DNA of 64,000 bases from contig CM000432.1 of NCBI GenBank assembly GCA_000165345.1, forward strand, positions 640,001 through 704,000, given 5' to 3'. The notes beneath the pieces are model-generated. The model worked only from the letters and a program-made list of their open reading frames with translations, was not told the DNA's origin and did not search any database. Made by a program: the position numbers and the translations under genes. Below are positions 22,846 through 58,300 of this stretch, piece after piece (position 1 is the first letter of the stretch; every line of letters begins with the position of its first letter).

Positions 22846-23260
22846 CTCACAAGTAAATAATTTTTTAATTAAAGAAATTAAATATATATTTTATTTCGCG
22901 GGGCATTTTTTTTATTATTTCCAGAATGAACAAAAATGTAAATACTTAACAATTAATTACCAAAACCTATAAGTGAATTATAAAGAACAATTGTTTATAT
23001 TGGAATAATTTGATTTATTCTTTAAAAGTATAGGGTAATATTTACTATATAGTAGCATTTTGAAAATCCAGAGTCAAATATTAGAATTTAGATCTCAAAA
23101 AATTATTGTTAAATTCATTTTAGCTTAGCTTCGAGTTATTAAGTTACCGCACAAAGTGTGTCATTCTTACAAGTAAAAGGCAGATTTGCAAAAGTAATTG
23201 CATTTTTATAGAATAATACTTAAACAAAAAAAAATAAGGATAAATTGTTTATATTACGTA

Positions 23261-25350
23261 ATGAATAGTAGTAAACCTGAGTATGATGCAATCATCAGCC
23301 AAATCGAGTTATTCTCAAACACAATACCTGATAGTAATGCATTTGTTTGGTTGAATGATAATGGGAATGAAGAGTCAACAATTACTTATAAAAATCTTTG
23401 GAAATCAATTAGAATAATCTCTCATTTTTTGTTAAATGAATTGTCATTAAAAAAAGGTGATAGGATTATTTTGTGTTACACACCAGGAATTGATTTCATA
23501 TATTCTTTTTATGGCTGTCTTGCAAGTGGAATTGTTGCAATTCCTGTTTACCCTGCAGATCCAAATAATTCATCTCAAGTGGATAGGCTTCGTAAGATTG
23601 TTGACATAAGCCAAGCTAATGCTTGTCTTACTAATTCATCCTACAATAGAATTATTTCACTATTCAAATTTAAATTTTTCAATGAACCTCTTTGGAATGC
23701 AATTAGTTGGTACTCGACAGATAAAATATTAAGAGACTATAGTGAATTTGAATTAGTAACAGATAATGGTTTTTACAAATCGAAAAATGACTCATTGAAT
23801 CCGTTTAAAACAGTTGTGAAGAATGAAATTATTCATTTTAAAAAGCCAAAATGTGAGCCTCATGATAGCGCATTCATACAATTTACATCCGGATCAACAG
23901 GTCATCCAAAAGGAGTAATTGTTACTCATGGATCATTATATTATAATTCACTATTGTGTATGAAATGTTTTAACTTCTCTCTAGAACCTAAATTTGAATC
24001 ACCCGAAACAAAAATAACTGAAAATGATATCGAAACGAGTGATGAAGCTAATAAAATACTAAAAGAAATTATTGAAATTAAAAATCAATTCATAAAGACT
24101 TTTGGGCATAACATTAGAGGATTTTCTTGGCTCCCAATGTATCATGATATGGGTTTAGTAGGATTTATTGTTAGCACAGTAATTATCGGATCTGAAACGT
24201 TTTTACTATCACCATTTTCATTTATTAAGAACCCCCACATATGGCTTAAAGTGATTTCAAAATACAGAATTGCTGCAACTGCTGCACCAAATTTTGCATT
24301 TGATTATATTTGTAGAAAAATAACAAACGATGAATTAGAAGAAATAAATAACTTGGGTGGATTAGGTTGTTTGAAACATGGTGGTATTTTAAGTGGTTCT
24401 GAACCAATTAGAGCTGCAACACTTGTTAGGTTTGTAAAAAAATTTTCTTCAGTGGGTTTTTGTTCATCTGCCTTCCTTCCTGCGTATGGGATGGCTGAAA
24501 ATACACTTATTATTTCCGGACTTAAAAAAAAAAGCAAACTATTTCCTAAGGTATTAACATTAAAAAGTGATAAAATAATCCCAGGAAAAAAGGTTGAAAT
24601 AGTCAATTATGGATATATTTCTTGTTATTGTAACTATTGTAAACACGAAAATAGCATTGAATTCAATGACAAAGATTGCATGAAAAGAAATTTAGTATGT
24701 TGTGGAGAAAAGAACTCAGTAAACGATAAAATCATCATTGTTTGCCCAGAAAAAAATACGATTCTTCCAGAAAATTATGTTGGTGAGATTTGGGTTTCTT
24801 CTAGAAGTAAAGGCGCAGGATATTGGCTCTTACATGATCTAACTGACAAAATTTTCTTTGCAAAAGTAAAGGAATGTGATTCTGACTTGTCTGATATAAA
24901 ATTTTTGAAAACTGGAGATTTGGGTTTCATAAATAACGATCAGTTATATATAGTAGGAAGGCAAAAAGATGTAATTATCATTAGAGGTAAAAACTATTAT
25001 CCGCAGGATATTGAAGAAGTAATCGATACTTGCCACGAAGTAATTCGTCCGGGTTGTTGTGTGGCATTTTCAATTGATATTGATGGTGAAGAAAAGCTTG
25101 CAATTGCAACAGAAGTAAGAAGTGAGCTTATTGAATCTTCGGATATTTTGGGAATTAAATCATATATTAAAGGTTTAATTAATAAAAAAGAAAGATTTCA
25201 AGCTAAAGATATTATTGATAAGCTATCAATTAGTATTCAGAAATACTTAGGAATTGAGGTTTATAGAATAATATTAATAAAAGAAAAAAAAATGCCAAAA
25301 ACCTCAAGTGGTAAAGTTCAAAGGTCAAAAGTTAAACAAATGATTATGAA
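23261..25350 (+). other. PKS loading unit: fatty-acyl-AMP ligase (adenylation, AL) domain
   Basis: The AMP-binding core 'FTSGSTGHPKGV' is at about 23882. 'YGMAENT' is at about 24490, 'TGDLGF' at about 24910, and the C-terminal 'KTSSGKVQRSKVK' at about 25300. Confidence 0.8.
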
Positions 25351-34300: not shown

Positions 34301-37300
34301 TTAACAATTATTTTTGTCACTATCGGTGCGAACTTATTATGTGGCAAAAATACTTTATCATCTCACTTTCAATCATCTTTACTTTCATATTTAAGGTCTG
34401 CGAGCAACGAATTCAATCAATTAGGAAAAATAAGTTTGATTATTGTTGATTGGAATAGTATTTCAAACCTAAAAATTAACAAAAACTTTTGCCAAATATT
34501 GAAATTGATATATAACAATGTTATAAATAAAAAATGGTTTGAAAAAGAATATCAGTTACTAGAGTACAATAATGAAATTAAAATCAAAACTATTAAAATA
34601 AAAGAGTCAATTAGTCCATATAATAATTATATGGCTTTAAAACTTACAAATAGAGGAGCAATATCGAATATTATAACCAATTTACAGAAGTTTAGGGTTG
34701 TTCCTATGGAAGGGGAGGTGGAAATAAGAATAAGAGCAATTGGCCTGAATTTCAGAGATGTTTTAAATGTTATGGGATTATATCCTGGCGATCCTGGAAA
34801 ACCAGGGAGTGATTTTTCGGGTACAGTAGTATCTGTAGGGCCTGGAGTGAAAAATATTCAAGTTGGTGACGATGTATTTGGTCTTTCTCAGGGTTGTATT
34901 GAAACATATCATACTACAAATGCTTTGTTGGTTGCGAAAAAACCTAAATTATTAACATTTGAAGAGGCTGCATCAATCCCAACGATTTTTTCAACAGTAA
35001 AAGTTTCTTTAAACCAGTATTCAAAACTAAAAAAAGGTGATTGCGTTCTAATTCATGTTGCTTCCGGTGGAGTTGGATTAGCTGCAATACAAATTTGTTC
35101 TAGAATTGGTGCAAACATCATTGCTACAGTTGGAAGCATTAAAAAGGTTGAATATCTCAAATCTATTGGGATTAAATTTGTTTCAAGCAGCAGAGATTAT
35201 ACAAAATTCTCTCAAGATATGAAATATTTTATGAGTGAATTGAATATTGATGGTGTTGATATTGTTATAAATAGCTTAGTAGGAGAATTTATTCCGTTGT
35301 CAATGAAATTTTTAAAAAGAAATGGAACTTTTATTGAACTTGGAAAACGTGAAATATTAAGTGAAAATCAATTAAAAGAAATTAGGACAGACATCAATTA
35401 TCAAACTGTTGAATTTGACAAGTTGGTTGAAAATGACATTGTTTGGTTCCAAAATCTATTACAAGAGATAATGATAGATATAAATAAAGGAAAAATCCAA
35501 CCAATACCAACTAAAGTATTTAGTATTCAAGATAAATCAGGAATAATTGACGGATTTAGATATATACAACATGCTAGCCACATAGGGAAGGTTATACTGT
35601 CAAATCCAAGCACTTCAATTTGCTCATACAGTAAAGATGCATACATTATTACCGGTGGGATGGGCTCACTTGGTTTGGTTGTTGCAAATTGGTTAGTTGA
35701 AGAAGGAACGAAAAATATTATATTAATGGGTAGGAGTTCAATAGATTTTGAAAATAAATTTGCAATCAAGCTATTAGAGTTAAGTGAGAAGGGAAAAATA
35801 AACTTGGAAATGCTTAAATGCAATATTTGTGATTTAAATTCACTATTTAATATTATTAATAAAATTAAAGGAAAATATAATATTAGAGCAATCATTCATG
35901 CTGCAGGCGTGCTTAATGACGGGAGCATACTTTCGCAAACTGATTCAACTTTCCTGAGTACATTTCTTCCAAAATCTATCGGGGCTTGGAATATTCATTA
36001 CATTACAACTTCCTTACTAGAGCATATTCCACTTTTAATTATGTTTTCATCAATATCAGCACTGATAGGAAACAATGGTCAGACTAATTATTCTGCAGCT
36101 AATGGCAATATTGATTATTTATCAGAGATACGCTCTCAACTTGGAATGAAATCAATCAGTATTCAATGGGGTCCTTGGGGTGAACAAGGCATGGCAAAAG
36201 AAAACTTAAATTTAAAAATGTTAAAAGCAATTGGACTAGTTCCAATAAAAAATTCCTTAGGTCTTATCTCACTAGGAGGAATAATTTCTAATTGTATGAT
36301 AAACAAAGTTAATAAATATATTGTACAACCATTAGATCCTTTGGTCGTAAAAAATAATGCATTAACACACATTTTCAGTGAAATTGAATCAGAAGTACAA
36401 GAAACAAGAAATGGATATCTCTTTTCGACAATGAACTCGGAAGAATTACATTTATTCGTGCTTTCAAGTATTAAAGAAGCAATTTCAGATGCAATTGGAA
36501 TTGATGTTAATCTTATTGATTCAGAATTGCCATTTAAAGACCTGGGAATCGATTCTTTGTCTGCAGTAGAATTAAGAAATACTCTAACTTCAAAATTTGA
36601 AGTTAATCTTCCTCCAACTATAATAATTGACTATCCAACAATTTCAGAACTTTGCAAATATATAGAGATGATTATTGGAAAGAAAAATGTTAAGGAATTT
36701 GATAATAAAAATATAATACATTCTAATTTTAAGAAAAGTGATATTTTTATATCAGGAATTGGAATCAGAGTCCCCGGGGATGCAAGTTCAGTTTTTAAAT
36801 TCTGGAAAAACATGACTAGTCTGGTAACCTGTATATCTGAAATCCCTTATGAAAGATGGGATGTTGATAAGTTATTTGGAGATTACAATGACAAAAATGC
36901 AACATATTATACAAGAAAGGGAGGATTTATTTCTATCGTTGATATTTTCGACTACTCTAAATATCAAATATCGAAAGAGGAAGCAATTCAAATGGATCCT
37001 AATCAAAGGATAGCTTTAGATACTTGTTTTTCTGCATTATCGGATGCAGAGATTGAAATTAAAGATTTATTCAATACAAATGTGGGTGTATTTGCAGGGA
37101 TGTGTAATGATGAATGGGCAATACTTTCATCTAAAAGAAATTATTGTAATGCATTTTCAGGAACAGGAAATGCAAAATCAATCATTTCAAATAGAATCTC
37201 TTATGTGTTTGGACTAAAAGGTCCGTCAATAACTATTGATGCGGCATGCGCTTCTTCATTAATTGCAATTGATCAGGCCATAAAATCATTGAAAAATAAC

Positions 37301-40300
37301 GAATGTAATATGGCCATTGCATTTGGAGTACAATTGAATTTATCTCCGAACAATTTTATTGTATTTAGCAAAGCAAAAATGTTGTCCAAAAATTCTGAAT
37401 GTAGAAGTTTTGACAAAGATGCGGATGGATTTGTAAGAGGAGAAGGGTGCGGAGCTATTGTACTATCGAACAATAATATTAAAATTAAAAAAAAATGGGG
37501 AAGGATATTAGGATCATCTACAAACCACAGCGGAAGATCAATTTCCTTAACAGCCCCAAATGGAGTTGCACAGCAAAAAGTTCTTTCCACCGCACTAAAT
37601 ATTGCTCGGGAAGAAAATAAATCCGATATTAGGCCTGGATATATAGAATGCCATGGTACTGGAACATTACTTGGAGACGCAGTTGAATTTGGTGCAATTA
37701 AAGAAGTATATAAAGATATGTACAAAATTATCGATAGTAACATCGACTCTCCACTTATTTTAAGTACAGTAAAGCCACAAATTGGACATTTGGAGGGTGC
37801 TGCAGGAATTGTTGGATTTATCAGACTTCTAGTAGTTTTATCATTTGGAGCAGTTCCAGCACTGTTAAATTATAAAAACATCAATCCACATATTGAAGTT
37901 GAAGATTTCAATATCGTTTTCCCTAATAATTCAACGTGGAAATTAAATAAAAATGTGGGAGGAGTTTCTTCATTCGGATTTGGTGGTGCAAATTGTCATA
38001 TATTAGTAGAGGGAGTTAAACAAAAGAATCCACTAATCAAAGATAATGAAAAATTGATATTTATGTTTACAGGGCAAGGATCTCATTACGATAAGATGGG
38101 TATTGAATATTATAATTCTAATGAAATATTTAGGAAATCAATAGATGAATGTTCAGATTTTCTGGACAAATTCCTCGATATTCCATTGAAAGAAGCAATG
38201 TTTATAGAAGGAGCCAAAGAAAAAATTAATATTGATGTTGAAATTTATAATCAACTTTCAATAGTTTCAATTGAATATGCTGAAATGATGTTATTAAGAA
38301 GTATTGGAATTTTTCCAGACATTATTTTTGGTCATTCTTTGGGCGAATATTTAGTGGCTGTTGCGGCTGGAGTAATGACAATTGAAATTGCATTGGAAAT
38401 AATATATCGAAGAGGTATAGTTATCTCTAAATTTGGAAAAAAAGGGATTATGGTAGCAGTAAGACGTTCTGAAGAACAAATTAAAAAAGCTATAAAACAA
38501 TTTGAAAATAGTCTTTCTCAAGAGCAAAAACTGAAAATAAGTCTTGGATTAATAAATGCTCCAAAAAATTGCATTATTAGTGGAGAAGAAAATCAAGTAA
38601 TGGCAGTATTAGAATTATTGGATTCCAGTAAGTCATATAAAAAACTTCCAGTTTCATATGCATTTCATTCAGTAATGTTTTCTGAGATAAGCAACATTTT
38701 ACATGAAGAAATAAAAAATAAAAACCTTAATTATATAGATAAAAAAGTCATAGTTTTTTCATCAATTTTGGGTTTAATGGTTAAAGATGAAATGTCAAAT
38801 TTAAACTATTGGTCAAGCCAGTTATTTAAACCTGTCAATTTTTATTCGATGATTAAAAATTTAGAAGAATTCATTATAAAAAATGAAATTAAAGTGAAGA
38901 ACATAATAGAGATTGGTCCAACTTCGTTGTTAACTCCGCTTTTAAAAGCTTCTTCAAAAGGGATATTAAACAACGCAAAGTTTTATTCCTTGATGAAAAA
39001 AGACTCGAATGTTAATCCAACTGAAGTTCTAGAAAATATTTGTTCTAATGTTAATATAAAAATCGCTAATAGATCTTCAAATGAAAATAATTTACCAAAA
39101 ATTGATTATCACCTAAAATGGAATGAAATATCACATCCATTTTTATTAAAAAGAATGCTTTCACCAATAATTAATTTAAATAAAATAGTTAAAGATTTAA
39201 GCTTTGTTTATGCGACTCCTTTGACGGAAAAAATATCTAAATTTTTCCACGGATATAAAAGAAATGGTGCATTCGTTATGCCAGAGATAGCCTTAATCGA
39301 AGTAATTTCAGCTGCAATAAACGATATTAATTCTCAAATTAGTATGATCGATAATGGGTTTTTATCGGTTGAGTCGAATGTTCCGATTTTCCAGCTTGAA
39401 AAAATCCATTTTGGAATTCCATGGGAATTTAGAACTTACAAAACTCAAGATGATAGACCTACGCTGATTTTTACCTTAGATTCTCGTAGAAATATTTCAA
39501 TTAGTTCAAATAAAGGAGGCCACATTAATGCAGATTTAAAAAAGAACTCAATACATCACCTGGATGCAAAATTAAATGTTTATTTCCCTGAGAATAAAAG
39601 AGAGTCAATTAAATTCCCAATACATGCTTTAGAAAATTCTGAAGCTTTATTATTTGAAGAAATTTACGGGCCAATAATTAAAGGATCTTTCCCAGTTATA
39701 AATTCAAGTAAATGCATTCGAAAGATAGTATTAAAAGAAAATGAATCATTTTCAATTTTAAAATTAAATTTCGATATGGAAACAGACTTAGAACCATCTG
39801 GAATTAATATGGGGTTATTTTATTCTATTGACAGATTTATGAATGTTCATCCAATGATACTTGAGTCATCAATTCACACAATTATGTTGGCTGCAATAAA
39901 AAATAATAAACATTTTGATTTATATTTTCCTACTAAAATTGACCTACTTAATATATCTAGCATTGATTTTACAAGGAATGTCTATGTTCATTCTGTTATT
40001 AGAGAACAAAATGAAGAATATATATTGGGAGATATATTGATTTATCATGAAAATCAATTTGATTTTCCTATTGTTGAAATAAGAAAAATTAGACTCGAAA
40101 AACTTAATTTCGAAAATAAAATACCTTTACTTTTAAATCAAGAATATGCATTTTTAAAAGAAGAATGGGAATTGCAAAATAATAATGAGCAAAATCATTA
40201 TGATAAAATCATTATATTTGGTTGTTCAAAAACATTTGATTTGTTTAAAAAAAACCTGGCCCAGAATATTTATTTTGTTGAAAATGAGAAAGATCTTCTG

Positions 40301-43300
40301 ACATATCTAAATTCAATCTCATCCTCAAAAATTTTAATTATAAACACATTTTTCCGAAGCGGAACTAAGTTTGAAGTTATTAGCAATGAAATTGAACTAA
40401 TTAAAGAAATAATTATTTCAAATGATAATTTCCAAAAAAAACAGAATAATTTTATCACGTGGTGGATAGTAACTAAGGGAGTAGTACTATTTAGAAATAA
40501 TCAAAGTATTAATAACTCAATCTGGAAAAAAATCAAAGAAATAAAGGAAAAAATGAGAGATTATTGCAGGGTATTTATGACAGATACAGACGATATTTAC
40601 TCAATTAATAATATAATTAGTTATCAAAAAACAGATGAATGTTGCTACAGGAATGGAGCTATTTACTTTTTAACGTTAAATTGTAAACAGTTAATTAATC
40701 ATAGGGTTTTTGATTTACGGAAAAATAAGAATCTGTCCATAGAAATAATTATGGTTGAAAATATAATAAATGAAAGCTTCAAATTCTTAGGAAAAGTTGT
40801 TTATTCTTGTAATACAAATATTTTGGGTCAGTACGTAATTATCGAGAATAATAATGATATTCAACACGAGATAAAAATAGGTGATTTAGTTATCACTGAA
40901 GTTGATAATAAATATTTGATTGGAATCGATGATTATAATTATTTTGGTCTAAGAAGCAATGTTGCACTTCCAAAAATTCAATATATTTTTGATAAAATTC
41001 CATTTAATTTGTTTGAAAATATAGTTATTAAAATTTCTAATAAAAACAAATTAGTAAAAATATATGAAATATGTTTCAGTATAATAATTAATGTATTAAA
41101 GCTAAATTCAGTGAACAAATCAAGAAAAATAACAGTAATTGGTAATTATGATGAGAAATTTTCGAAAATAATTCTATCTTTGGGTTGCAAATTAAATATT
41201 GATAATTTATCTAAGCCAGATTGTTTAATACAAATAGGTGAAGAAACCAAATTATTTAATATTAATCAAGATCCAATTGCTAAATTTAGAATTGGAATTA
41301 ATCATGAAGTTATAAATGAATGCAATAATGAAACTATACTTAATCCTAATTATCAAGAATCTAATCAACTTAAATTAGAGTTATCAAATCCTTATTTAAA
41401 TAAAACAGAAAAAATTAACTTTGTTAATAAGTTTGGATTAATACTAATTACAGGAGAAATGAAAAACATTACTTTGATAATAAACTGTTTATTTGCTTTG
41501 GGTTACAAAAAAATTGCATTAGTTAAAATGGACAATAATGCTCTTTCTGAAAAAATTTCTGAATTCGGAGAAAGTATTAAACTATTTAACTGTTTACCTA
41601 ACAAGGTTTCGATAAACAATTGTTTTAATAAAATTATTTCCGAATATCAAAATTTGGAAATAACTGGTTATATCCACTTAAGCTCTATTGAAATACTTAA
41701 AACAGATCAAGAAAAAGTGAATAATTATTCGCTAATTCCCTGGAATATCCACAATTTAGTTACAAAAAAAGGATATAATCTAACATTTTTCGTGATAATT
41801 TCAGGTATTTTTGGGCAACTTGATCAATTAAAATTTGGAATTGCTGAAAATTTATTTGAAAACCTAACATACCATAGAAACGAATTATTAAAACTTCCTT
41901 CAACTTATATTCTGGATAACAAAATTGTAAATTATATTGGAGGCAATAAAAGTTCATTATTTTCTATTGAAAATTATATTAATAAAATACCATTATTTAC
42001 AAATCTATTCAGTGAAATAATTAATAGTAAATTAAATGGAACTATAGTCCCCATTGAAATTGATGAAGAAGTTATTAATCAATTATCTAAAAATAGTACT
42101 GAAAAATCTAAGAAACTTTATTTTAAATTTGTTGAAAAAATATCTAGGAAAAATTTCAATAATATCAAATATGTTAAATTTTCAAATAATTTGTCTAAAA
42201 GAAAAAAGTTGATCGAAGAAATGGTATTAAAATCAGTAAATTCATTAATTCCAGAAAATAAGAAGTATAGCATGGATGATTCATTATTATCGATTGGTAT
42301 TTCTTCATTAAGTGCTATAGAACTTGTAAATAAATTGTCTTCAGAATTTAACTATGAAATATCACCATCTTTACTTTACGAACACCCTTCTATTAATTCA
42401 ATTATTAATTACTTGTTAAGTTTAAGTCATCATTTTGACGAAAATATTGAATATTTTGATGACAAAATAAATAGTGAAATTATTGAGAAAAATACTCTGC
42501 TAAATATTAACAACTACTTCATAAATCCTGAAATATTGGTTTCTTCAGTCAATAATGATTTAGATTTAAACTCCAGAATGTGTATTGTTGGTATGGCAAA
42601 CAACATCCCTGTTGCAGGTGCCTCAGTAGGTTTATTTTGGCATCTATTGAAAGAAAATAAAGATTTTGTAATAGAGGCACCAATAAATAGAATTGATTGG
42701 GGAGATTCTTTAAATACTGATCAATCAATTATTGGAAAAAGCTATTGTAATCATGGAACATTTATAGAAAATGCACATCTATTTGATAATGAATTCTTTA
42801 AAATAAATGAATATGAAGTTTTACAGATGGACCCACAACAAAGATTAATATTGGAAGTTTGTTTTGATGCATTACATGTTTCAGGATATAAAAATTTAAA
42901 TGAAATGACCAATTTAAATTTTGGGGTTTTTATTGGTAGTTGTACAAATGATTGGTTGGAAAAATTGTCTGACTTAGATTCCATAAATGCATATTCAGGT
43001 ACTGGGTTTTCGTCATCACTAATATCTAATAGGGTTTCCTATTCTTTTGGTTTAACTGGACCATCATTAACTATTGATACTGCATGCTCATCTTCACTTG
43101 TTTCTCTAAATATTGCAGTCCAAAATATAGAAAAAAAACAATGTAATGGTGCAGTTGTAGCAGGAGTGCAAATGACATTAAACAAGACGACATTTATTGT
43201 TTTTTCTAAATCGATGATGTTATCTAAAGATGGAAGATGCAAATCATTCGACTATTCTGCAGATGGCTTTGGAATTGGAGAAGGGGTTGCTGCAATAGTA

Positions 43301-46300
43301 ATTTTGCCTAAAAAAGAATGTGAGAGGAAAAATAAAAAAGTACTTGCCTATATTTCAGGTTCATCTGTAAATCAAGACGGAAAATCTGCAACACTAACTG
43401 CTCCAAGCAAGAATTCCCAAGTTAAATGCATTAACTTGGCTCTTTCTAGTATGGAACATATTCATCCTTCAATGGTAACGATAGTAGAGGCTCATGGAAC
43501 TGGTACATTAATTGGAGATTCCATTGAAGTAAGTGCATTATACGAAGCGTACTGTTCTTCTGAAAGAAAATCGAAATTAATGATAGGAAGTGGCAAATCA
43601 AATTTTGCACACACTTTTGCAGCTTCTGGAATAATTGGATTAATTAAATTAGTTTTAAGTCTCCATAATTCTATGATTATTGGGAATATACATTTAAAAC
43701 AACTAAATCCATATATTGTTCATTACGAAAAACTAATAATTCCAAAAATAAACACATTAATTCCAATTGAAAGTGAAGTAGCTTTTGGGTCAGTTTCATC
43801 ATTTGGATTTGGTGGTACAAATTCTCACGTTATAGTTGGTGTGGAAAAAAGTGATTTTGATATAATTTCATATATTCAAAAGTCTAAATTTAATAATTTT
43901 AAGAGAAAATCATTTGAATGGAAAAATTTTCCAATTTACGATTCAAATAAACCAATTATTGTATATACAAAAAATAGTTCAGGAATTTTTGAAAAATGTG
44001 ATTCAATATTATTAAATAACTTTAACCCAAATATTGAAAACATATTTAGAGAGTTTTTTAATCTCGCCAACAAGTTACAGAATAACAATGAATTTGGTGT
44101 CAGAATAACCAGGTTTAGGCACTATGGTCGAGAAAAAAATGATTTATATTTATTAACTTATGAAAATTGCAAAGACAAGTATCATGTATCTCTATGGTCT
44201 ATTGAATATAAATTAATTAGAGAAAAAGAGATATTTTTGGATATTTTCTCTCGAGGAATTTCAATTATTTCGGAATGCATTGTAGAAAAAGACTATAGAT
44301 TTGAATATTATTTATTGGAACAAAATATTGATATCAAAAAAGATAATCTAGCTATTTCTTTGGATAATACAAATGTAAATGATATTATACAGGAGAAATT
44401 ATCGATAACATCATCGAATAATATAATCGACCAAATTCTTAATCGCATTTCAGAGTTTATTGATATAAATTATTATAGTATATCCGAAGTAATATCGTTT
44501 GTTAATATTCTGGATTTTTTAAATAGTAAGAATATTGAATTATTGTACCAAGTAAATACAAAATCTAAAAATAATAAAGTTCCCATTCGTTTATATTCTC
44601 AATACTTACAAGAACAACTAATTGAAGACGTTTATTCTGTTAAAAAATCATGGAGATGCATATTAGAAATAAATTTATTACAACAACCTCCAGTTATTAA
44701 CCCATTTTCCAACCTGCTAGAAACAGCTTCGAGAAAAATTCCGGGAAGCAAAGAAATTGAAATAATCATTAATGCATTTTCTATTACAGAATGTTTTGGA
44801 GAAAAAATATTTGGGATCTCTGGAACTATAGTATCAAAAGGAAACGAAGTTTCCGATTGGAAAATTGGAGATAATATTATTGGAATTGTTGAAAGTAAAA
44901 TAAATCAATTCATTACAACTTCAAACCTAGTTTTCAGAAAACCGTCATTTTTATCTCATGAAGAGTCAGCATTACTTTTGTTACATAGCCCTGTAACTGA
45001 AGAAATTATTAGAAGAATTTCTGAATTGAAAAGGCAAAACTGTATATTAATATTCTCAAAGTTAAATGGAGTTTTTCTAACAGTAATAAATTACTTATTA
45101 TACTCTGAGTTAAACTTTACTGTAGTAATTAGCGAAAAGAATGTATATAACTTTTTATTATCTATTGGGGTCAAAAAAATTGTTATGAAAGATAATATTG
45201 ATATTATCAAATCTTCAACAGACAACTCTTATCCAGATTTATTGATTACTGATGAAGTTTTAAATTTAGACCTAATAAATATAATGGATAATAATGGAAA
45301 AATTATATCAATTAATTCAAAAAACATAAATTATTGGAATGAAATTGAAAGGAAAAATATTACATACGAGAATATTTCCATCATTGACATACTTAGTAAA
45401 AAGAATATGGATCAAAATTTCGATATAAATCGATTAAAAAAAGAAAATATTTTCAATTTTCCGATTTTAATTCAAGAATATAATTTTGATAATTTAATGA
45501 TAAATAATTGTAAAAACTATAATTATTTGGGTGAAATCGTATATTCATTAAGATCTAATTTATCAGAAAATATATTTTCTTTCAGCAAGGAATTATTTAC
45601 TTCATTTAAAAACAATGAAATGAACGCGTCACGACATAATTTACGTAATTTTATTATCAACAAATTATTAAACAATTATTCTAATACTATAATAATTGAT
45701 GGAGATTATTTTTCAATAGAAGATGCTTGGGAAATTTATTATTTAATTACATTTATTCAACTAAGCTTCAGGGAAATCTTTATCATATTTTCCCAAAATA
45801 ATAAAAATATAGAATACAAATATTTAGCAAAGAAAATTATAGAAAATGGATTCAAAGCAATGATTGAATTAAAAAATTTCGATCAAATAGACAAATTTAA
45901 TTCAATAAATATTCCTATCTTTATAGACTTTAAATTGGGAGGTTTTAATAGGTTATTGAATAATGATCTAGTTTGTTCTAAAAAAGAAAATGGATCCATT
46001 AAATTTAACATAATTTCAGAAAGAATCAAAAATATAATATTAAATATCATTAAAATTGATAGTAAAAACCCTATTGAAGAAAAGAAACTATTTGACACTC
46101 CAATTCGTGAACTTGGTGTTGATTCGCTTGAGATTACTGAATTAAGAAGTATTCTATCCAAAGAGTTCGAAATTAAACTGCCAATTTCTGTATTATTTGA
46201 TTATCCTACGCTTAACGAATTAATTGGATATATAGAGAATAATTCATCAAAAGAAATTAAAATAAATAAAACTGATTTAAAAATAAACTTTGATGGAATG

Positions 46301-49300
46301 AAGAAATTTAATATAGGAATAATTGGTGCTAGTTGTACGCTTCCTACTGGAATTGATAACCTTTCTTCTTTCTGGGAGTCACTCATGCTAGGCAAATGCG
46401 GCGTCAATCTGATTCCTTATAGCAGATGGAACTGTGAATTAGAGAATGATAGCATTACAAAAAATATATCAACTATTTTAGGGTTAGAGCTCTTTGATAA
46501 TAATTTATTTGGAATATCTAACATAGAGGCTCGTACAATGGATCCACAGCAAAAACATCTTTTAAATTCAACATTTAATGCACTAGTTTCTTCAGGAAAT
46601 TCTATTGAATCAATAAAAAATACAGACACAGGAGTATTTGTTGGATTGTGCAATATTGATTGGTCTTTGTACCTATTAAACGAAAGATCATGTAATTCTG
46701 CGTACATCGGTACTGGGACTGCAAGTTCTATTGCTTCAAATAGACTTTCTTATTTTTATGGTATTAAAGGTCCTTCAATTACAATTGATACCGCATGTTC
46801 TTCATCTCTTGTTGCAATTGATGCTGCATTTAAAAACATTTCACTTGGAATATGTGAAATGGCAATAGTATCTGGTTCTCAATTAATAACAACTCCAAAT
46901 TTATTTTCTGTATTTTCTAGGGCAAATATGTTAAGTAAAGATGGCCTTTGTAAATCATTTGACGAATCTGCCGATGGTTTTGGCAGGGGTGAAGGTGTTG
47001 CAACAATTATTTTGAAAAAATTTAACTTTAAAAACGAATCTAACAGAGCAGTTTTAGGAATTTTGAAAGGTACAGCTGTTAATCAAGATGGTAGAACTGC
47101 ATCTCTTACTGCCCCAAGTAGTAAATCACAGTCTGACGTAATTTCTCATGCATTACTTAGATCAGAAGTTCAATTTAATGAAGTATCAATGATAGAGTCT
47201 CATGGTACCGGCACACAATTGGGTGATCCAATAGAAATAGATGCGATAAAAACGGTTTATCAACTATCATCAAAGAAATTAGTAATTGGAGCTCTAAAAA
47301 CAAATATTGGGCATTTAGAAGCTTCGGCAGGAATTGCAGGTTTAATTAAATTATTGTTATCATTAAGGAATGGAATTTCGCCACCTAATTTACACCTAAA
47401 AAATCTGAATAAATATATCAATGTTGATAACACTAATATTGTTTTTCCAAGTTCAAAAACTAGGCTTTCTATCTCAAGCGATGAATCTTTTATTGGAGGT
47501 GTTTCTTCATTTGGGTTCGGAGGAACGAACGCACATGCAATATTGGAAGTTAGTAGTGCAAATAAAATTCCAATGATAAATGATATGGCAATTGCAATAC
47601 TAAATGAAGAATTTGAAAATGAATACACAATGAATATTACTCATTTAACTCAACTCCGTGAGTTAATTGCTAATAACACAATTTTTGAATCTTATTTCAG
47701 ATATTGCACAATGATTATCCTACAGATTTTAAACATAAATTTTTACGAAATTATAATTGAAAATAATGAAAAGTTACTCAGAGCAGAAGAAATGTATATT
47801 TTATTATTTGCATTTTATTATTCGATATATCAAACTTTAAAATATTGCAAAATTGTTGTCGATACATTCATTTCTGATGAATTTGGTTCAATATTATTTG
47901 ATACTATTACAAACAAAATTAAATTACCAAATGCAATAGAACTTCTTAAAGAATATTGTAATAAGAAATTATATTCTATGAATTCAAATCTAAAAATTTA
48001 TTGTTTAAATGAAAAAGAGAATCATCCATTTAAACTAGAAGAGGTTAAATTTTTAAACGCTAGTGTTGTGATAATAAATCCATTCACATTTAATAATAAA
48101 CAAAAAAAACAATTGAGAAACATGTCAAAATTAATAATACATAATGAAAGCAATTATTTACAGTTCATTGAAAATGTGATAAATAACTTTGGAAAAATGA
48201 GTAAGGTTTCAAAAATCGAAAGATTTCCATTAAACAATTATATCCACCCACTTCTTGATTCAGATATTGATTCAAGTTATAATATAGAAATTTCAAAATT
48301 CTTCATAGAGAGATATTGTGATCCTTCTTATGAAAATGAAACTATTCATCAGGGATCTATTATTATCATTTCTTTATTATTTGAATCTTTAATATCCATT
48401 TTAAACAAAAAACATAACCTTTCTTTGGAATTTAAAATTGAATCTATTGAAGGAATATACGAGACTGCAAATAGAGTGAGAAAATTTGACAAATATTCAA
48501 AATTGAAACTAATGAAGAATAAAGATCATTTTATTTTATGTGCTTTCAATGGACTTCCACTCTCATCACTCTCAATAAAAGAGAGTCTTGAGAGAAAACC
48601 ACAAGTTTACATTCCAGAAATAGAATCTCCCAAATATAATGAATTTAAAAAAACAAAAATTCCCAAAAATATATTAAAGTTGATTAGTTCCATCGAAGTT
48701 CACGAATCTTCGATATACATTAAACTTAAACTTCCTTTCTTTAATTTATCGGTTGAGTCCATTTTTTGTATTCACCCAGCCATATTTACCTTGATGATAT
48801 ACTCATCTATGGAAATCTTAAGTAAAAAGATAGATCCATTAAAAATAACAATTGAGAAACTCTCAAACATTATTATCTCTGATGTTTTTGATATCGAGAA
48901 AATATGCTGTAATTCAAGATATACATTAGAATTAGTATGTAAGATTAATGAAGGAAAAAATATTAATATAAACTTATGGGTAGCAGACGATTATGGGATT
49001 CAACCAACAGAATTATTCTTACAATGTGATGTTATTTTTACCGAAAATAAAGTTAATATAATTAATTCATCAACTGGATTAGTTTGGAATACTATTTGGA
49101 AAGAAATCAAATATAATTTGATTTCTGAACAAAAACAAGGAAATAAATTAATAATTAACTTTAACAAAAATACTATTATTTCAAGGAAGGATTTAATGGT
49201 TAACGACATATTCATGAATTATTCACAATTTTTAGAAGATAATTTTGACTTAAAAGACATAAATAATATAATTGTTGATATGTGTATTCCAATTCCAAAT

Positions 49301-52300
49301 AATTGTCAAATGAAAGAAATAGACCAAAGTTATTTTGTAATATCAGAAAATTGGGAAATAGATTTTATTCAAACATTTAAAAAAATAATAAATAAAAACA
49401 ACAGAAATGAATCGATAAATATTTTCATTTTAGTCAATAATACTGTTAAAACTGTAGAAAATGATCAAATTAATATGAATATGACCTGGGTATGGGGGTT
49501 TATGAGATCTTTGAGAATGGAATTAAGTTCTAAAGTAAAAATTTTACTGATTGATATTGACATTAATCAACTTGAAGAGAAAAGTTGCCTAAATACTGAA
49601 CAATCGATCCAAGTAACTAATATTGTATCAAATGTTAAAAGTTTGGATGAAGATGGGGAATATGAATTTGTAATTAGAGAAAATAAAATATTTGTTCCTA
49701 GATTGAAACAGTATGAATTTGGAAATCATATTAGGGAGAAATCTCAGACTGATCTAGAAATTTGTAACATTATTACCGGTGGTCTAGGAGGAATTGGATT
49801 GGCTATTGCAGAGTGGTTAATAGAAGTTGTTGGAATGAAAAATATATTATTATTAAGTAGAAATCCACATATGTCAACAAAAAAATCTAAAAAATGGAAA
49901 CAATTAACAGAAAAAACCAAAGAAAATATATTGATTGAAAAGTGTGATATATCAAATAGTGCAGAAATTGTAACTATAATTGAAAAATACAGTAAAATAT
50001 ATAAAAAAATTGGCGTAATGCATATTGCTGGCTCTCTAATTGATTCGAATATTCATAATCTTACCGATAATATTGTTTCTGATGTTAACTTGCCTAAAAT
50101 TAGAGGAATTATTAATTTACATAATGCAACTTTAAACAAAAATTGCGAATATTTTATTGCATTTTCCTCCATAACTTCACTTATTGGAAATATTGGTCAA
50201 TCTGCATATGCTGCTGCAAACTCAGTATTAGATTCTATTATTGAATTTAGAAGGAAACTAGGTATGCCAGGAAATAGCTTACAATGGGGTGCTTGGGCTG
50301 AACAAGGAATGGCAGCAGAGAATGAATTACTGCAAAAAAATTTGGTTAATGTCGGTCTTTCATTAATAAATAATAATATAGCATTTGAAATTATTAAATA
50401 TATTATCTCTGATTCAAACAAATTCCCGTCAGTTTTAGCGATTCAACCTGCAAATTGGGATAAATTTATAGATAAAATTGGAATTAGGTATGGAATTCTC
50501 AAAGAAATAACATCAAACAAAATAAATCATGATAGAATTACTATTCTCAATTCAATATCTGCTGAGAACAGAATAGATTTTATTTCAAATAAAATTATTT
50601 CAATTTGTAGTGAAGTTCTTGGAATTGAAAATGATCTGAACTCTGAACAGTCTTTGATGGACTTTGGAATTGATTCTATTATGGCAGTTGAAATTAGAAA
50701 TTCTCTTTGCGATAATTTTGGAATTTCCCTTTCACACACTATATTATTTGATTATCCCACAATTTCAAGCCTTTCAACATATATTAATCAGAAATTCATG
50801 TCAAACTGTAAAATAGAAAAAAGTCAAGAGCAAATGAATTTAAAGGAAAATTTGTTTGATTACAATGTCGCCGTAATAGGTGCAGCTTGTCGTTTACCAA
50901 AAAATATTACTAATTTAAGTGGACTTTGGGAACTGTTAATGGAGTCTAATTGTAGTGTAGGAAAAATACCTTATAATAGGTGGGATAGTGGCTTATTTTT
51001 CTCTGAAAATATTAATTCTGGAAAAATGTATACTGAGTCTGCAAGTTTTATTGATGGAATCGAATTTTTCGATAATTCAGAATTTAAAATATCTTCAAGT
51101 GAAGTCTATTATATTGATCCTCAACAAAGAATAATTATGGAAACTGCATTATTGGCTATAAAAAGCTCCAATGTTAAATTAGAAACACTAGTAAATTCCT
51201 TAACAGGTGTTTTTATTGGTTGTTCTTCTAGTGATTGGACAATCTTGACCAATACAGCATCAGTTCCTCCTGGGCCTTACACAGGTACTGGAATTTCCTC
51301 ATCAATATTATCAAACAGAATTTCTTATATATTTGGATTCCAAGGACCTTCTTTTACAATTGATTCTGCTTGTTCGTCTTCTCTTGTGGCCTTAGATTCT
51401 GCATTTGAAAAATTTAAAAACAATAATATTCAATTTGCTATAGTAGGAGGAGTAAATCTTCTTCTTTCTCCTCAACCATTTTTGGCGTGTTGCGCTGCAA
51501 ATATGCTTTCTTTTGATGGTATTTGCAGAAGTTTTGATGAAAAAGCAAATGGATATGGAAGAGGAGAAGGATCTATTTCACTATTGTTAACATACCTATC
51601 TAAAGCAAAAGAAAATAATGAAAAAATACTTGGTATAATTAAATCCACATCTGTTAATCAAGATGGAAAAAGTGCTACTATTACTGCTCCTAATGGCCCC
51701 TCACAGCAATTTGTGATAAAACATGCAATCGAAAAAGCTAATTTATCTCCTTCAAATATAACTTATATTGAAACTCACGGAACTGGAACCAAACTAGGTG
51801 ATCCAATTGAGTATAATGCTATAAAATCTGTGTTTAATTTGGAAGATAATACATTCGATAATAATGTTTGTTTATTGAGATATTCTCCACTATATTTAGG
51901 TGCAATAAAAGCTAATATTGGACATTTGGAAGGTGCTGCTGGAATTGCAGGTTTAATCAAATTAATTTTAGTTCTGAATTACAAGGTTGCTGTTCCAATC
52001 CCAAATCTTAGAAAAGTTAATCCATTAATCGAGTTAAATAATTTTAATGCAATATTTCCCATGGATAAAAAACCAGTAAACATTAAGAATGACTCTAACA
52101 TTATTTATGGAGGGATTTCATCCTTTGGATTTGGAGGAACAAATGCTCATGTCATAATTGAGTGCAATTCAGATAATATAACGGAAAACAGTATTTTGTT
52201 CCGTTCAGAAAATTTCTCTTTAAGAAGAAAAAACTATGCTTGGTCAGATACTAAACATCCTTTAATCGACGAAAAAATATTGGAAAATATCGGTAATAAG

Positions 52301-55300
52301 AACTCAGAACTAAATGGAATTAAATTATTTAGAAATATTAATCATAAAATATTTAGTTCAGTAAAATTTGCACTTAAAGTCAATAATGATATAATAAACA
52401 TGCTTTCTGATCACGTAATTGATAACAAAATAATATGGCCTGCTGCTGCATTTATTGAAATGATTTTAGGAGTTGCAAGAAATATATATATTTGTAACAA
52501 TGAACAAATTTCATTTTCAAAAAGAATTTTAAAAACTAACATAAGAAATTTATTATTTGAACAACCATTAATATTAGAAAAAAATGAAGAAAATATATTA
52601 GTTTGTGATTTTGATTTGAGACTTAAAAGAATAAAAATATATTCTGAGTTAACATATGAAAGCAATAATGAGTTGATTTATGTATCATCTGAGATTGGAA
52701 ACACGGATAAAATAGAAATGATAAATGAAGGGTGTTTAATAAATGATCTAGAGATTTCAAAAGAAAAGGAACTAGATATTTCATTAATTTATAATAGATT
52801 AATGGAATTGGGAATTCAATACGGCAAAAAGTTCAAGACAATAAAGAAAGCATGGAAACTAAAATCAGAAAATGAAGCTTTAACAAAAATACAACTTAAT
52901 AGTGACGAATATATCATTAAATCAGATGATTTAAGTGCCCAAGAACCTTTTCTTTCTTTAACAGAGTTAGGGTTTGGAATTCATCCAGCTTTGCTAGATG
53001 GAGCATTACAATCATCCTTTATTTGCATTAGCGAAATAAAAAACGATTTGGAAAAAATTATTTGGGTTCCATTCTCGATATCTGAAATAGAATATTATAA
53101 TAATCAAGAACCAATATTAGAAGCATGGGTACATTGCAAAGTTTCACCCACAAATAACAAAAATGAAGTTATCTCAGATATAAAAATCTATTCAGTGAAT
53201 AAAGATCTGCTATTTAATATCAAAAATATTAGGTATAGAAGTACAATTGATATAAGTAATAAAATTATTAAAGATTCAAAAGAAAATAATCCAGAAAATA
53301 TCAAAAATTGTTGGGGATTAACTTGGAAAAAATCGAATAACATTTTAGATAAAATTGAAAAGAAAAGATGGATGATATATTTGGGTGATGAAATTGAAAA
53401 AAAGAGCAGCTTAAATAATTTATTTAAATATTATTGGAACAAAAATGACATTTTAGAAGAGTTATCTGATTTTTCTGGTGAAATCAACATTGCATTCGTA
53501 ATAAATTCTGGAATCAATAATAAATTACATAATCATGGCATTGAAATAGTAAATTGGCTTAAACATCTATTTGATATTAACTCTAAAGTTTCTCGCTCTT
53601 CTGTTATTTTATTTATAACAGAAAACACAATCCCTCATAATAATAATAATCATAAATTTATTGGATCAGATATTTGGGGTCTTGTGAGATCGGCTAGGTA
53701 TGAACTTGATAAATATTCTCTTAGATTGCTTGATTTAGACTGCTTTACAAAAGATTTAAGTGAAGATAATTTATCAAAAATATTTTCATGTATTTTAAGT
53801 TCCAACGAATCAGAATTCATTTTTAGAAACGGAGAGCTGCTATTTCCCCGTTTATCAAAAATTTCAATCCCAATAAACGGACCTTTAAATATTAGATTGG
53901 CTGAAAGAGGTGCATTAACAAATTTATTAACAGAGATGCAAACAAATATTCCATATATAAATTCAGATAAAAAATTGGATCTAATCGACTGCTTTGATAA
54001 ATTGGAGAATTATTCTGAAATGAAAAATGAGCCTATTTTAAAAGATAACGAGGTATTACTGAGAATATGTTCTGTAGGATTAAATTTCAGGGATGTATTG
54101 AATGTTATGGGCTTATATCCAGGTGACCCTGGCCCTCCTTGTTCTGACTGCTCAGGAATAGTAGTTTCTGTAGGTAAAGGCGTGAAGCATCTAAAATGTG
54201 GTGATGAGGTATACGCAATGGTCCCTGGGTGCTTAAATACATTCATAGTTGCAATTGGAGATACTTGTTGCTTGATGCCAAAAAATTGTGACTTTTCTTT
54301 ATCTTCATCAATACCAACAATTTATTCTACTGTTGATATTTGTTTGAGAAAAATTTATAATATTAAGAAAGGAGATCGCGTATTAATTCATGCAGCTTCA
54401 GGAGGAGTTGGATTGGTCGCAGTAAATTACTGTAATTCTATTGGTGCTAAGGTATTTGCAACCGTTGGGAATAGTAAAAAGGAGAAATATTTGAGACACC
54501 TGGGAGTAAAGAATATTTCGACCAGTAGAAATTCTGAATTGTTCAAATTAGAAATGGAATGCTTATTAAAAGGAGAAAAGCTAGATGTGGTGATAAATTG
54601 TCTATCTGGGAAATATATTGAATATAGCTTGGAGTTACTTTCAAACAATGGTATCTTTATTGAACTAGGGAAGATAAACATTTTATCAAAGAAAGATGTA
54701 TCCTTAATAAAACCTGGAATTAGGTACGAAATTGTAGCTCTTGACGACTTAATATTAAATGATCCCTCATGGTTTGGAACTGTCTTAGTTGATATTAAAA
54801 CAAGAATTGAAGAATGTAAAGAATCTGTTATACCCTTAATAGAATTCTCAATGGAGAACCATAAAGATTCAAATGATCTAATCGAAAAATCTGGATGTAT
54901 TTCTGGATTTAGATTTATGCAGAAGGCAAATCATATAGGTAAAGTAGTAATAAAAAACCCAACTCTTGATAATTCTTTATCTAGAAAAAATGGAGCCGTA
55001 ATAGTTATAGGAGGAAATGGATCTCTAGGGAAATTTACAACGAAATGGCTTTATTTTAATGGATTAAAAAATATAATTTTGTTATCTAGGAGTTCAAATA
55101 ATTATGCTTCAAATCTACCTGGTGTTAAACAAATTAGCTGTGATATTTCAAATATTAATTCTACTATTTCAGCGATAAATACTGTACTTGAAAATCCAGA
55201 AAGTAAACCAATTGTAGGTATAATTCATGCTGCAGGAGTATTAGACGATAGGAAATTATTTGAACATTCAAAAGAGTCATTTAAATGCGTATATAGTCCT

Positions 55301-58300
55301 AAAGTTCAAGGCTTATGGAATATTCATCAAATAACTCAATATCTCTATATTGAATTGGAATTTTTAATCGCCTACTCTTCAATTGCGAGTCTATTAGGTA
55401 ATATTGGACAAGCAAATTATTCTGCGGCAAACTCTTTCATAGACTCTTTTATGAGCTATAGATCAAGTCTTGGAATCAATAGTTTTAGCATTCAGTGGGG
55501 TCCTTGGCTAGGAGAAGGAATGGCATCAAACAATTTAAGTTTGAAATTTGAGTCTACAGGATTAATTGGAGTAGATAAATTAACTGCGATGCAAGCGTTA
55601 AATACGATTATAAAATCAAAAAAAAAATCAATTCCAAATGTGATTTGTGTAGTAGATGCTGATTGGGGAAAATTAGTTTCTAATATTCCTCCCAAAACTT
55701 CTAATATCTTTACAGATATAATTAATAAAAAAATCATAGAAAAAGATTACAATAAGTCGAAAATTATGGAATTATTGGAAAAAAAGAGTTCGGTCGAAAT
55801 GGAAGATTATATAATTAATTTACTAAGGGATATTATTAAAACAGTTGTCACTGACGATAAAATAGATATTAATGATTCCAAATTACTAGAAAAACCACTT
55901 CACGAGTTTGGGATAGATTCACTTTCTGCTGTTGAGTTCAGAAATATTTTATCTAAACATACTGGAATATTACTTCCGACTACATTGATGTTCGATTATC
56001 CAACGATAATAAACATAAAAGATTATATTCTGAGTGAAATGGAGGACATTAGACTTGGAGACAAATCATGCGATCCTTTAGTTACTGATATTAAGAAAGA
56101 TCGAATATTAGATATTGCTATTATTGGCTTGTCTTGCAAATTACCTGGATCAACTGAAGATATTGAATCATTTTGGGAGATATTAACTGGTGGTATTAAT
56201 TGTGTTTCTAATGTACCTGTAGTTAGATGGGATCATAAAAAATATTTTAGTTTAAATCTAGAAAATTTTGGTCCATATTATTATGCAAATTATGGCTCAT
56301 TCATTGACAATATTGATATATTTGATGCACATTATTTTGGAATTTCCCCTTCAGAAGCAACAATTATTGACCCTCAACAAAGACTTTCCCTTATGCTTGC
56401 AGTACAATCAATTGAGGATGCAAAATTAAACTTGTCAAAATTGAAAGGAACAAAAACTGGTGTCTATGTTGGATGTGGAAATAGTGATTGGGCATTAATG
56501 CAAGGAAATCAAATATCTGAATCAGAATATATTTCACCTTATACTGGTACTAGTGTTGCGCTTTCACTTATTTCTAATAGGATTTCTTATAATTTAGGCC
56601 TGAATGGACCTTCTATGACAGTTGATACTGCATGTTCATCATCTCTTGTTGCACTGGACATAGCTGTACAAAATCTTAGATGGAAAAAATCTGATATTTC
56701 CATTGTAATTGGAGTAAATTTATTAATTTCTCCCCAAGCATATATTGTATTTTCCAAGTCAAAGATGCTATCTATAACGGGAAGTTGTAAAACTTTTGAC
56801 AAAGATGCTGATGGATATGTAAGAGGGGAAGGATGTTGTTCAATGGTACTTTGTAGATTTGATGAAAGAGAAAATGTAGATTTTGATAAAAAAACTTTAA
56901 AAGCTGAACAGAATATTATTATCTATGGTTTTATTAAAGGTTCAGCAGTAAATCAAGATGGAAGAAGTGCTTCTTTAACAGCTCCAAATGGTCCTGCGCA
57001 ACAGAAAGTAATAAAATCTGCTATTGAAGATTCGTACATAAAGTTAGATGAAATTTCAATTATTGAAGCCCATGGAACAGGAACACAGTTAGGGGACCCT
57101 ATTGAGTTTGGAGCAATAAAAAATGTTTTCAATTCCAGAAATAGGGGTCCAATTTATATTACAGCGTTGAAAACAAATATTGGACATTTAGAGGGAGCAT
57201 CAGGAATCGCAGGAGTTATAAAGATGATATTGATGCTTAATCATTCAATCGTTCCAAAAAACCTTCATTTTAAAACATTAAACCCATTGATTGACAATTC
57301 TAATTTTAATGCAATAATCCCAGATAGAAAATTAAAAGTTTCAGCTAACATAGGGGGAGTTTCATCGTTTGGATTTGGTGGAACAAATGCTCACGTAATA
57401 ATTGAAAAAAATATCTCAAAAATTCCTCTTGAAAATCAAAACTATTCAATAATCGAAAATACTAATAAGGAAGTTTCAAATAAGATAGCATTTATATTTA
57501 CTGGCCAAGGAAGCCAGTTCGAGAATATGGGTCAAGAGCTTTTTGAAAATGAACCTATATTTAGAAAATCAATGTTAGAATGCGCAAAGCATGCCAATGA
57601 ATATTTACCAGAATCTTTAATTGAAATTTTATACCCAGAAATTTCAACACCAAGGACTAAAGCTGGATCGAAAGATGCTGGTTTTTATGATATTAATGAT
57701 ATTTTGTATTCTCAGGTTGCAATTTTTTCAGTAGAGTATTCTCTTACAAAGTTATTAGAGAGCAAAGGAATAATTCCAGATTTAGTAATTGGGCATTCCT
57801 TAGGCGAATACTGCGCTGCAGTTATTGTAGGTGCAATTGAACTAAACCAAGCATTAAAAATGATAATAAATAGATCAAAAATATTGGAGAAATCAAATAT
57901 TAGTGATGGAGGAATGCTTGCATTGAGAAAATCTGCGAGTAGTATTGCAGAAATCCTTAAAGAGTTTGATGAAAATAATGTATCATTGGCTGCAGTTAAT
58001 GGGCCAAATAGTGTTGTGATTTCCGGAAGAAAATATATATTAAAGTCAATATTAGAAAGATTAGGTGGTAGTGGAAAGTTTCTTAATATAGATAATGCAT
58101 TCCATTCATCCCTAATGCAAGATGCATCAAATAAATACAAAGATTTCATTGAAGAAGAAATAGTTTTTTGTAATGAAAATAAAAAGAAAATAAAGTTTAT
58201 TTCTACATTGAAAGGAAGACTTATAAATTATTCTGAATTGATGAGTTCTGATTATTGGTCTAACCACATAGTTTGTCCTGTATTGTTTTATGACGCAATA

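Follow-up and report, generated by a model that had tools for sequence, protein, structure and literature searches.

What occupies the long stretches between the recognizable domains of a giant modular polyketide synthase (PKS), and what are they derived from? This question is raised by one open reading frame (ORF) of 13,434 codons (nt 23198..63502, + strand, ~40 kb) in a 64,000-nucleotide window of contig CM000432.1 (GenBank assembly GCA_000165345.1, positions 640,001 to 704,000 of the forward strand). An earlier reading of this DNA from its letters, referred to herein as the original prediction, placed roughly 2.2-kb stretches without catalytic motifs after the KS domains of modules 4 and 5, and proposed that both modules descend from fully reducing modules whose DH, ER and KR domains decayed into structural scaffolds. 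Our analysis suggests that the two spacers are probably, for the most part, chains of catalytically dead PKS pseudo-domains from which large pieces have been lost in places.

Nucleotide positions below are those of the window, and amino acid (aa) numbering follows the ORF throughout, with aa 1 at nt 23198. Counted from its first Met, the protein has 13,413 aa and a mass of 1516.3 kDa; the surrounding DNA has a GC content of 23-33%. Pfam recognizes an AMP-binding/ACP (AL-ACP) loading unit, seven KS modules, and a terminal NAD_binding_4 reductase (R). CpPKS1 of Cryptosporidium parvum, known since 2002 (Zhu et al. 2002, Gene 298:79, as cited in PMC6568194, PMC2995488, and PMC10394414), is described as a 40-kb, seven-module, 1,516-kDa PKS (PMC6568194; PMC2995488). 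The window ORF is likewise an intronless 40-kb frame encoding ~13.4 kaa and 1,516 kDa, with AL-ACP, seven modules, and a C-terminal reductase, and two protein fragments from Cryptosporidium hominis TU502 are 96.8-96.9% identical to parts of it. Since size, architecture, and C. hominis identity agree, the window gene is CpPKS1 or a near-identical allele.

The two spacers occupy the following intervals.

nt 43850-46033 (aa 6885-7612): module 4 spacer, 728 aa between KS4 and ACP4.
nt 47561-49762 (aa 8122-8855): module 5 spacer, 734 aa between KS5 and KR5.

Positions, Pfam searches (no match in either spacer even at E ≤ 10), and motif searches (none of the KS, AT, DH, ER, and KR catalytic motifs searched for was found in either spacer) all agree with the original prediction. 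All five peptides that it quoted are present where it placed them: GDNIIGIV at nt 44867, KPSFLSHEESALLL at nt 44939, and ILIFSKLNG at nt 45044 in module 4, and, in module 5, HPAIFTLMIYSSMEIL at nt 48773 within a DH-like region and VWGFMRSLRMELSSKVKILLIDID at nt 49490 within the KR structural subdomain (psiKR5). Neither strand holds a long ORF that competes with the PKS frame in the spacer stretches, and the spacer region contains no tandem repeats. A methyltransferase, given earlier as an example of an unrelated functional domain that might lie here, was not found: there was no Pfam match in either spacer at E ≤ 10, and a cMT profile built from 7 PKS homologs matched nowhere in the protein at E ≤ 100; the shallow profile makes this negative a weak one. 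A word-indexed homolog search with either spacer returned no matches, from a collection that apparently holds no proteins longer than ~3,070 aa and hence no full-length orthologs. Metagenome scans with the module 4 spacer and with an alignment of part of the module 5 spacer (S5b) found nothing. A HMMER scan with the module 5 spacer gave a single match, the partial Cryptosporidium canis PKS KAJ1610357.1, which starts inside the spacer at aa 8218, is 64.5% identical overall, and served as the only ortholog for judging constraint.

Within module 4 we distinguished the following features.

nt 42575..43696 (+), aa 6460-6833: KS4, Pfam ketoacyl-synt E=1.4e-66, with DTACSS, HGTGT, and NFAH and the Cys-His-His residues kept.
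nt 43850..44752 (+), aa 6885-7185: S4a, 300 aa whose position corresponds to the start of DH in modules 1, 2, and 6, which have no AT; no Pfam or PDB match.
nt 44753..45577 (+), aa 7186-7460: pseudo-ER, identified by phmmer, blastp, HMM, hhalign, and alignment.
nt 45578..46024 (+), aa 7461-7609: S4c, 150 aa before ACP4 with one patch of KR structural type.
nt 46025..46234 (+), aa 7610-7679: ACP4, Pfam PP-binding E=6e-13, LGVDSL motif.

To judge from its sequence, the middle of module 4 is, beyond reasonable doubt, a full-length ER homolog of the MDR type. The pseudo-ER matched the CurK ER structure 5dp1 (phmmer E=1.5e-8) and a PKS-specific ER hidden Markov model (HMM) from 41 PKS homologs (45-49 bits), and hhalign gave E=1e-12. 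Comparison with the ERs of the same protein, including the module 2 and module 6 blocks singled out in the original prediction, yielded blastp E values of 8e-14 for ER2, 2e-11 for ER1, and 7e-8 for ER6. In a multiple alignment, the pseudo-ER follows the ERs colinearly from their first strand as far as the C-terminal IGKVV region. The cofactor turn reads LIFSKLNGV where ERs have LIHAASGGVG (HAAxGGVG to FSKLNGV, GGVG to KLNGV), the SSR phosphate site has become MKD, and IGKVV has become LGEIV. The loop LNFRD...YPGDPG reads ITECFGEKIFGI, with 12 residues deleted. The ER/MDR-like pattern with a lost GGVG that had been noticed here is therefore real, and with its NADPH-binding motifs destroyed the domain is presumably dead. 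Because this is a genuine, colinear, and full-length ER homolog, module 4 descends from an ER-containing module.

Predicted structures (AF2) and structural searches with these models (Foldseek) were obtained for the module 4 spacer with only ER alignment rows supplied, the flanks being left without rows to stay unbiased. The ER part reached a pLDDT of 70-94, with 23-51 for S4a and 39-66 for S4c, and Foldseek returned only ERs (CurK ER, mycocerosic acid synthase, and 5bp4). This agreement adds little, since the supplied ER alignment drives the fold. Structure prediction, which had been suggested as a check on both spacers, thus gave a confident if alignment-driven model for the ER part and low pLDDT for S4a, S4c, and the DH-like region of module 5.

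The segments that flank the pseudo-ER are best read against the layout of the seven modules, given here from Pfam and PKS HMMs.

Module 1: KS-DH-ER-(485 aa without KR signal)-ACP.
Module 2: KS-DH-ER-KR-ACP.
Module 3: KS-AT-DH-(720 aa, mostly dark, with a faint KR-like signal)-ACP.
Module 4: KS-(728 aa)-ACP.
Module 5: KS-(734 aa)-KR-ACP.
Module 6: KS-DH-ER-KR-ACP.
Module 7: KS-AT-(~350 aa dark)-psiKR-KR-ACP-R.

In modules 1, 2, and 6, only ~70-110 aa lie between KS and DH. S4a is possibly a DH relic: it begins exactly where DH begins in these AT-less modules, carries a FEWKNFPIYDS motif at the position of the FPW...HPLL start of DHs, and shows a strand-strand-long-helix-three-strand pattern in the low-confidence AF2 model. 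No hhalign signal was obtained for S4a against DH, psiKR, KR, AT, the module 5 and 7 relics, or the dark regions of modules 1 and 3 (z ≤ 1.1), and a forced MAFFT alignment with the DHs was unconvincing, so that a DH origin for the first 300 aa of this spacer was not borne out. In S4c, a patch of 27 columns (aa 7493-7519, nt 45674-45754) resembles the psiKR of module 5 (reciprocal blastp E=0.23-0.45; hhalign with C. parvum and C. canis combined, score 21.9, z=4.4, reached by 0 of 40 shuffles). S4c did not match the KR and psiKR6 profiles, and among the regions compared only psiKR5 scored above shuffles. The distance from KS to ACP is ~480-500 aa shorter in module 4 than in modules 2 and 6, which implies large deletions besides decay; the supposition that module 4 simply decayed in place does not hold.

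The features of module 5 are as follows.

nt 46310..47398 (+), aa 7705-8067: KS5, Pfam, with Cys-His-His kept in the alignment.
nt 47603..48217 (+), aa 8136-8340: pseudo-AT, identified by AT HMM, hhalign, phmmer, and alignment.
nt 48218..49072 (+), aa 8341-8625: ERFPLNN post-AT-linker motif and probable pseudo-DH, identified by hhalign, shuffles, and alignment.
nt 49115..49762 (+), aa 8640-8855: psiKR, identified by psiKR HMM, hhalign, and blastp.
nt 49769..50521 (+), aa 8858-9108 (Pfam part aa 8858-9035): KR5 catalytic subdomain, Pfam KR E=1.4e-46, with GGLGGIG and YAAAN.
nt 50591..50785 (+), aa 9132-9196: ACP5, Pfam PP-binding E=1.5e-15.

At the start of the module 5 spacer we found a domain absent from the original prediction. 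An AT HMM matched aa 8154-8250 over profile positions 19-117 of 289 (20.6 bits), with no match from Pfam's own AT model; hhalign gave E=1e-5, and phmmer placed the ZmaA AT at the same site (E=0.27). About 200 of the usual ~300 aa are left. MNITH stands in place of GQGSQ and SDEFG in place of GHSxG (the C. canis sequence here is ANKLG), and a deletion has removed the HAFH region. The segment appears to be a truncated, dead AT relic.

The region that follows (aa 8348-8625) is probably a dead DH. Against DH profiles, hhalign gave E=1.4e-3 to 1.1e-2 and z=4.8-6.0, a score reached by none of 40 composition-matched column shuffles, and the DH of 7zmf was found at the same motif with E=1.8. The region is colinear with DH1, DH2, DH3, DH6, external DHs, and a relic in module 7, and it presents the expected features in order, namely the HPLL start, the hotdog-helix segment, HPAIFT in place of HPALLD, and the terminal conserved Trp. 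Glu occupies the column of the catalytic His (HxxxGxxxxP), C. canis has Tyr in place of a nearby His, and the catalytic Asp is lost with the change from HPALLD to HPAIFT. The DH-like pattern proposed for this module therefore stands above composition-matched chance, but the signal is weak.

A comparable segment lies in module 7 between AT7 and psiKR7 (window 58385-59422, aa 11730-12075). This dark region scored z=5.1 against DH by hhalign and carries RRFPWININSHPL and FSIHPFLLQ motifs, with both the catalytic His and the catalytic Asp missing; its identity is 51.5% with C. canis and 96.2% with C. hominis. It shares RFPW...HPL and FCIHP motifs with the DH-like region of module 5 and is a probable second dead DH.

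The last part of the module 5 spacer tells a different story from the ghost of a KR implied by the original prediction. The homology of the KR structural-subdomain-like 'VWGFMRSLRMEL...' segment is significant: the psiKR HMM gave 45 bits, hhalign gave E=3.5e-10, improving to 5.7e-11 (6e-11) once the C. canis ortholog was added, and blastp found the DH6-ER6 interval at E=0.002. What had been taken for decay, however, is the ordinary structural half of a live domain, since KR5 immediately downstream retains GGLGGIG and YAAAN and is 70.5% identical to its C. canis counterpart. psiKR5 is therefore the normal structural partner of an active-looking KR5 and no ghost.

No trace of an ER was found in module 5, where the 233 aa between the DH relic and KR5 correspond to the KR structural subdomain. 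With neither a trace of an ER nor room for one, module 5 does not look like a former fully reducing module. Its order reads as KS-AT-DH-psiKR-KR-ACP, like modules 3 and 7 and unlike the fully reducing modules 1, 2, and 6. These results bear directly on the proposal that both modules are former DH-ER-KR modules that decayed in place to scaffolds. The dead full-length ER of module 4 with its patch of KR structural type, and the probable dead DH of module 5, are what such a history would leave; the live KR, the AT relic, the layout shared with modules 3 and 7, and the missing ER of module 5, the ~480-500 aa lost from module 4, and the unresolved KS tree described below make it unlikely as a whole. 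At most module 4 was once fully reducing.

Conservation provides a second view of the module 5 relics. Piece by piece, they are 45-56% identical to C. canis with 0-3 gap columns each; psiKR6, psiKR7, and the module 7 dark region are 52-55% identical, and catalytic domains 62-87%. Constraint on the relics thus seems relaxed and not absent, and in this respect the DH relic and psiKR resemble structural elements. Because they evolve at the rate of accepted noncatalytic structural subdomains, the relics probably still fold, and they probably act as folded spacing or packing elements. Within the same comparison we observed an indel of ~24-25 residues between C. parvum and C. canis in ER6 (window 54000-54970, indel at ~aa 10435-10460), a domain that is otherwise 80% identical; it lies near ENHKDSNDLIEKSG, an insertion of ER6 relative to the other ERs.

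The relics also differ in composition. GC is 0.22-0.26 in the relics, and Gly, Ala, and Pro together make up 3-7% of their residues versus 15-19% in live domains; Asn, Lys, Ile, and Ser account for 40-48% of spacer residues. Along the window, GC troughs of 0.23-0.26 at 40001-42000, 44001-46000, 48001-50000, 52001-54000, and 58001-60000 coincide with pseudo-domain and dark regions, and live catalytic domains lie at 0.29-0.33, so that the GC profile alone roughly indicates which domains are dead. Such a composition, along with the lack of any Pfam match, might instead be expected of disordered low-complexity insertions typical of AT-rich apicomplexan genes, with a likeness to PKS domains that arose by chance. 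This is highly improbable: the similarities to ER, AT, and psiKR have strong statistical support and run colinearly through entire domains, which contradicts an insertion for ~60% of the sequence, and tandem repeats are absent, the C. canis alignment of module 5 is nearly gap-free, and AF2 gave regular secondary structure throughout.

A further alternative concerns the segments with the faintest relationships. S4a, S4c, and perhaps the DH-like region could be functional domains of an undescribed or unrecognizable kind, such as an AT docking platform, a lipid- or substrate-binding domain, or a divergent enzyme. The ORF is open through them, no homology was detected for them with Pfam, PDB sequence searches, PKS-specific HMMs, or hhalign, and the equivalent pieces of module 5 are 45-56% conserved without indels. 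Their composition, however, is shifted as in the proven relics (GC 0.22-0.25; Gly+Ala+Pro 5-7%), their positions match the DH and KR sites of the sister modules, and AF2 gave no confident fold, so that we consider this quite improbable.

Several of our results nevertheless weigh against reading the spacers as chains of retained pseudo-domains. For ~450 aa of module 4 (aa 6885-7185 and 7461-7609), nothing convincingly similar was found, and module 4 falls outside the conservation comparison, whose data start at aa 8218. The DH assignment in module 5 draws on E values of 1e-3 to 1e-2 and on motif order. PDB-wide profile searches with that region recovered no DH, and AF2, run with a 5-sequence alignment, gave a mean pLDDT of 37 with Foldseek matches of no value. 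Deep DH or AT alignments were kept out of these models, as they would dictate the fold. The tail of the AT relic (aa 8218-8300) is 30-37% identical to C. canis, the lowest value in the 5.2-kaa comparison, and looks more like drift than function. Finally, several homologous PKSs contain KS-ACP modules in which KS and ACP lie only ~75-80 aa apart, which indicates that a structural role for such spacers is not obligatory. Decay into structural scaffolds is thus plausible from the conservation of module 5 and not required in general.

The original prediction also expected the sequence to record how module duplication proceeded. In a neighbor-joining tree of the seven KS domains and 23 outgroup KS domains (200 bootstraps), all seven grouped with a protist KS and with a C. 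hominis KS that we take to be FAS-derived (64% bootstrap). The best pairs inside the group were KS1+KS6 (59%) and KS4+KS5 (34%), neither of them supported, pairwise identities among the seven range from 38 to 48%, and KS4 is the most divergent. With no supported pairing, the order of duplication cannot be read from this sequence; the duplications are old.

What would modules 4 and 5 contribute to the product? The Cys-His-His residues are present in KS4 and KS5, as is the DSL serine in ACP4 and ACP5, so both modules should still condense. Module 4 would then act as a bare KS and ACP condensing module that leaves a beta-keto group, and module 5 would condense and subsequently reduce to a beta-hydroxyl. 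The relics stay in frame, since translation has to pass through them to reach the modules downstream. A recognizable AT is present in only two of the seven modules.

Window 38051-38947: AT3, with GQGSH.
Window 57482-58384: AT7, with GQGSQ.

A His in place of the conserved Gln has been noted for one C. parvum AT, and the inactive AT3 of Toxoplasma TgPKS2 has been linked to this change (PMC9301873). AT3 of the window PKS carries this variant. Every canonical AT motif is present in AT7 alone, and all seven modules may thus depend on a single fully canonical AT. Since modules 1, 2, 4, 5, and 6 lack a working AT, their malonyl units should come from elsewhere on the polypeptide, and ACP4 and ACP5 would be loaded from AT7 and perhaps AT3. 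One could go further and imagine that module 5 keeps its dead AT, and module 4 its dead ER block, as docking or spacing platforms that let AT7, or perhaps AT3, load the ACPs of the five AT-less modules, with the 300-aa segment of module 4 a new fold dedicated to this task; we regard this as a long shot. Prediction of the CpPKS1 product needs the live or dead state of each domain. The predicted module outputs and loading limits provide testable constraints on the polyketide or lipid product and bear on the choice of drug targets.

Other modules show related peculiarities. In module 1 (window 29804-31258, aa 2203-2687), the DH and ER motifs are intact (HIINGLSIFP and IHAATGGVG), and the 485-aa interval between ER1 and ACP1 matched neither the Pfam KR, nor four PKS KR HMMs, nor anything in a PDB sequence search; without a KR, a DH and an ER would have no substrate. 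In module 3 (window 39212-42274, aa 5339-6360), DH3 scored 34 bits; its catalytic His is replaced by Tyr, and HPALLD by HPMILE. The ~720 residues that follow are dark apart from weak KR/SDR-like similarity at aa 6073-6236 (7 bits; sorbitol dehydrogenase E=0.035), and module 3 may be largely nonreducing. Outside Cryptosporidium, module 6 is most closely related to AT-less KS-DH-(ER)-KR-ACP modules from Chromera, dinoflagellates, a coccidian-like entry, and metagenome proteins; given these alveolate relatives, the AT-less architecture seems typical of the protist PKS lineage. Upstream of the PKS, window 1-22845 holds fourteen further ORFs of at least 150 aa on both strands.

How do these modules compare with known systems? 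CpPKS1 as described has the same size, AL/ACP loading unit, seven modules, and C-terminal reductase as the window PKS. The CpPKS1 papers describe modules and recognized domains only; we came across no account of the pseudo-ER, the pseudo-AT, or the pseudo-DH in this literature, although the original description of 2002 may mention them. LovB-type fungal highly reducing PKSs keep an inactive ER0 that has lost the NADPH-binding glycine motif, and LovB is compensated by the separate trans-ER LovC. Like ER0, the pseudo-ER of module 4 is a retained homolog of the MDR fold without its glycine motif. LovB, however, is iterative and relies on LovC, whereas the module 4 relic sits in a modular synthase where no reduction is expected, since module 4 also lacks KR and DH.

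The psiKR and psiME of animal fatty acid synthase (FAS) and the KR structural subdomain of modular PKSs are noncatalytic structural homologs, and bacterial modular PKSs contain silent KR and DH domains. The psiKR of module 5 appears to be a straightforward member of the psiKR class. The FAS and PKS pseudo-domains are universal and clearly structural, whereas the ER, AT, and putative DH relics of modules 4 and 5 are limited to single modules and the AT relic is truncated. Trans-AT-like modules are AT-less, with vestigial AT-docking remnants after KS. Modules 1, 2, 4, and 6 are similarly AT-less after KS and module 5 has only a remnant, but the presumed donors here, AT7 and AT3, are on the same polypeptide. 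Lastly, AT3 of TgPKS2 (PMC9301873) provides a precedent for a nonworking AT in an apicomplexan modular PKS, as in module 5. That AT is full length with a single disabling residue; in the module 5 relic no AT motif survives and about one-third of the domain is gone. Taken together, these comparisons place CpPKS1, a gene already known, within the familiar phenomenon of dead domains kept in megasynthases, as an example of piecemeal domain death and deletion and not of a new principle.

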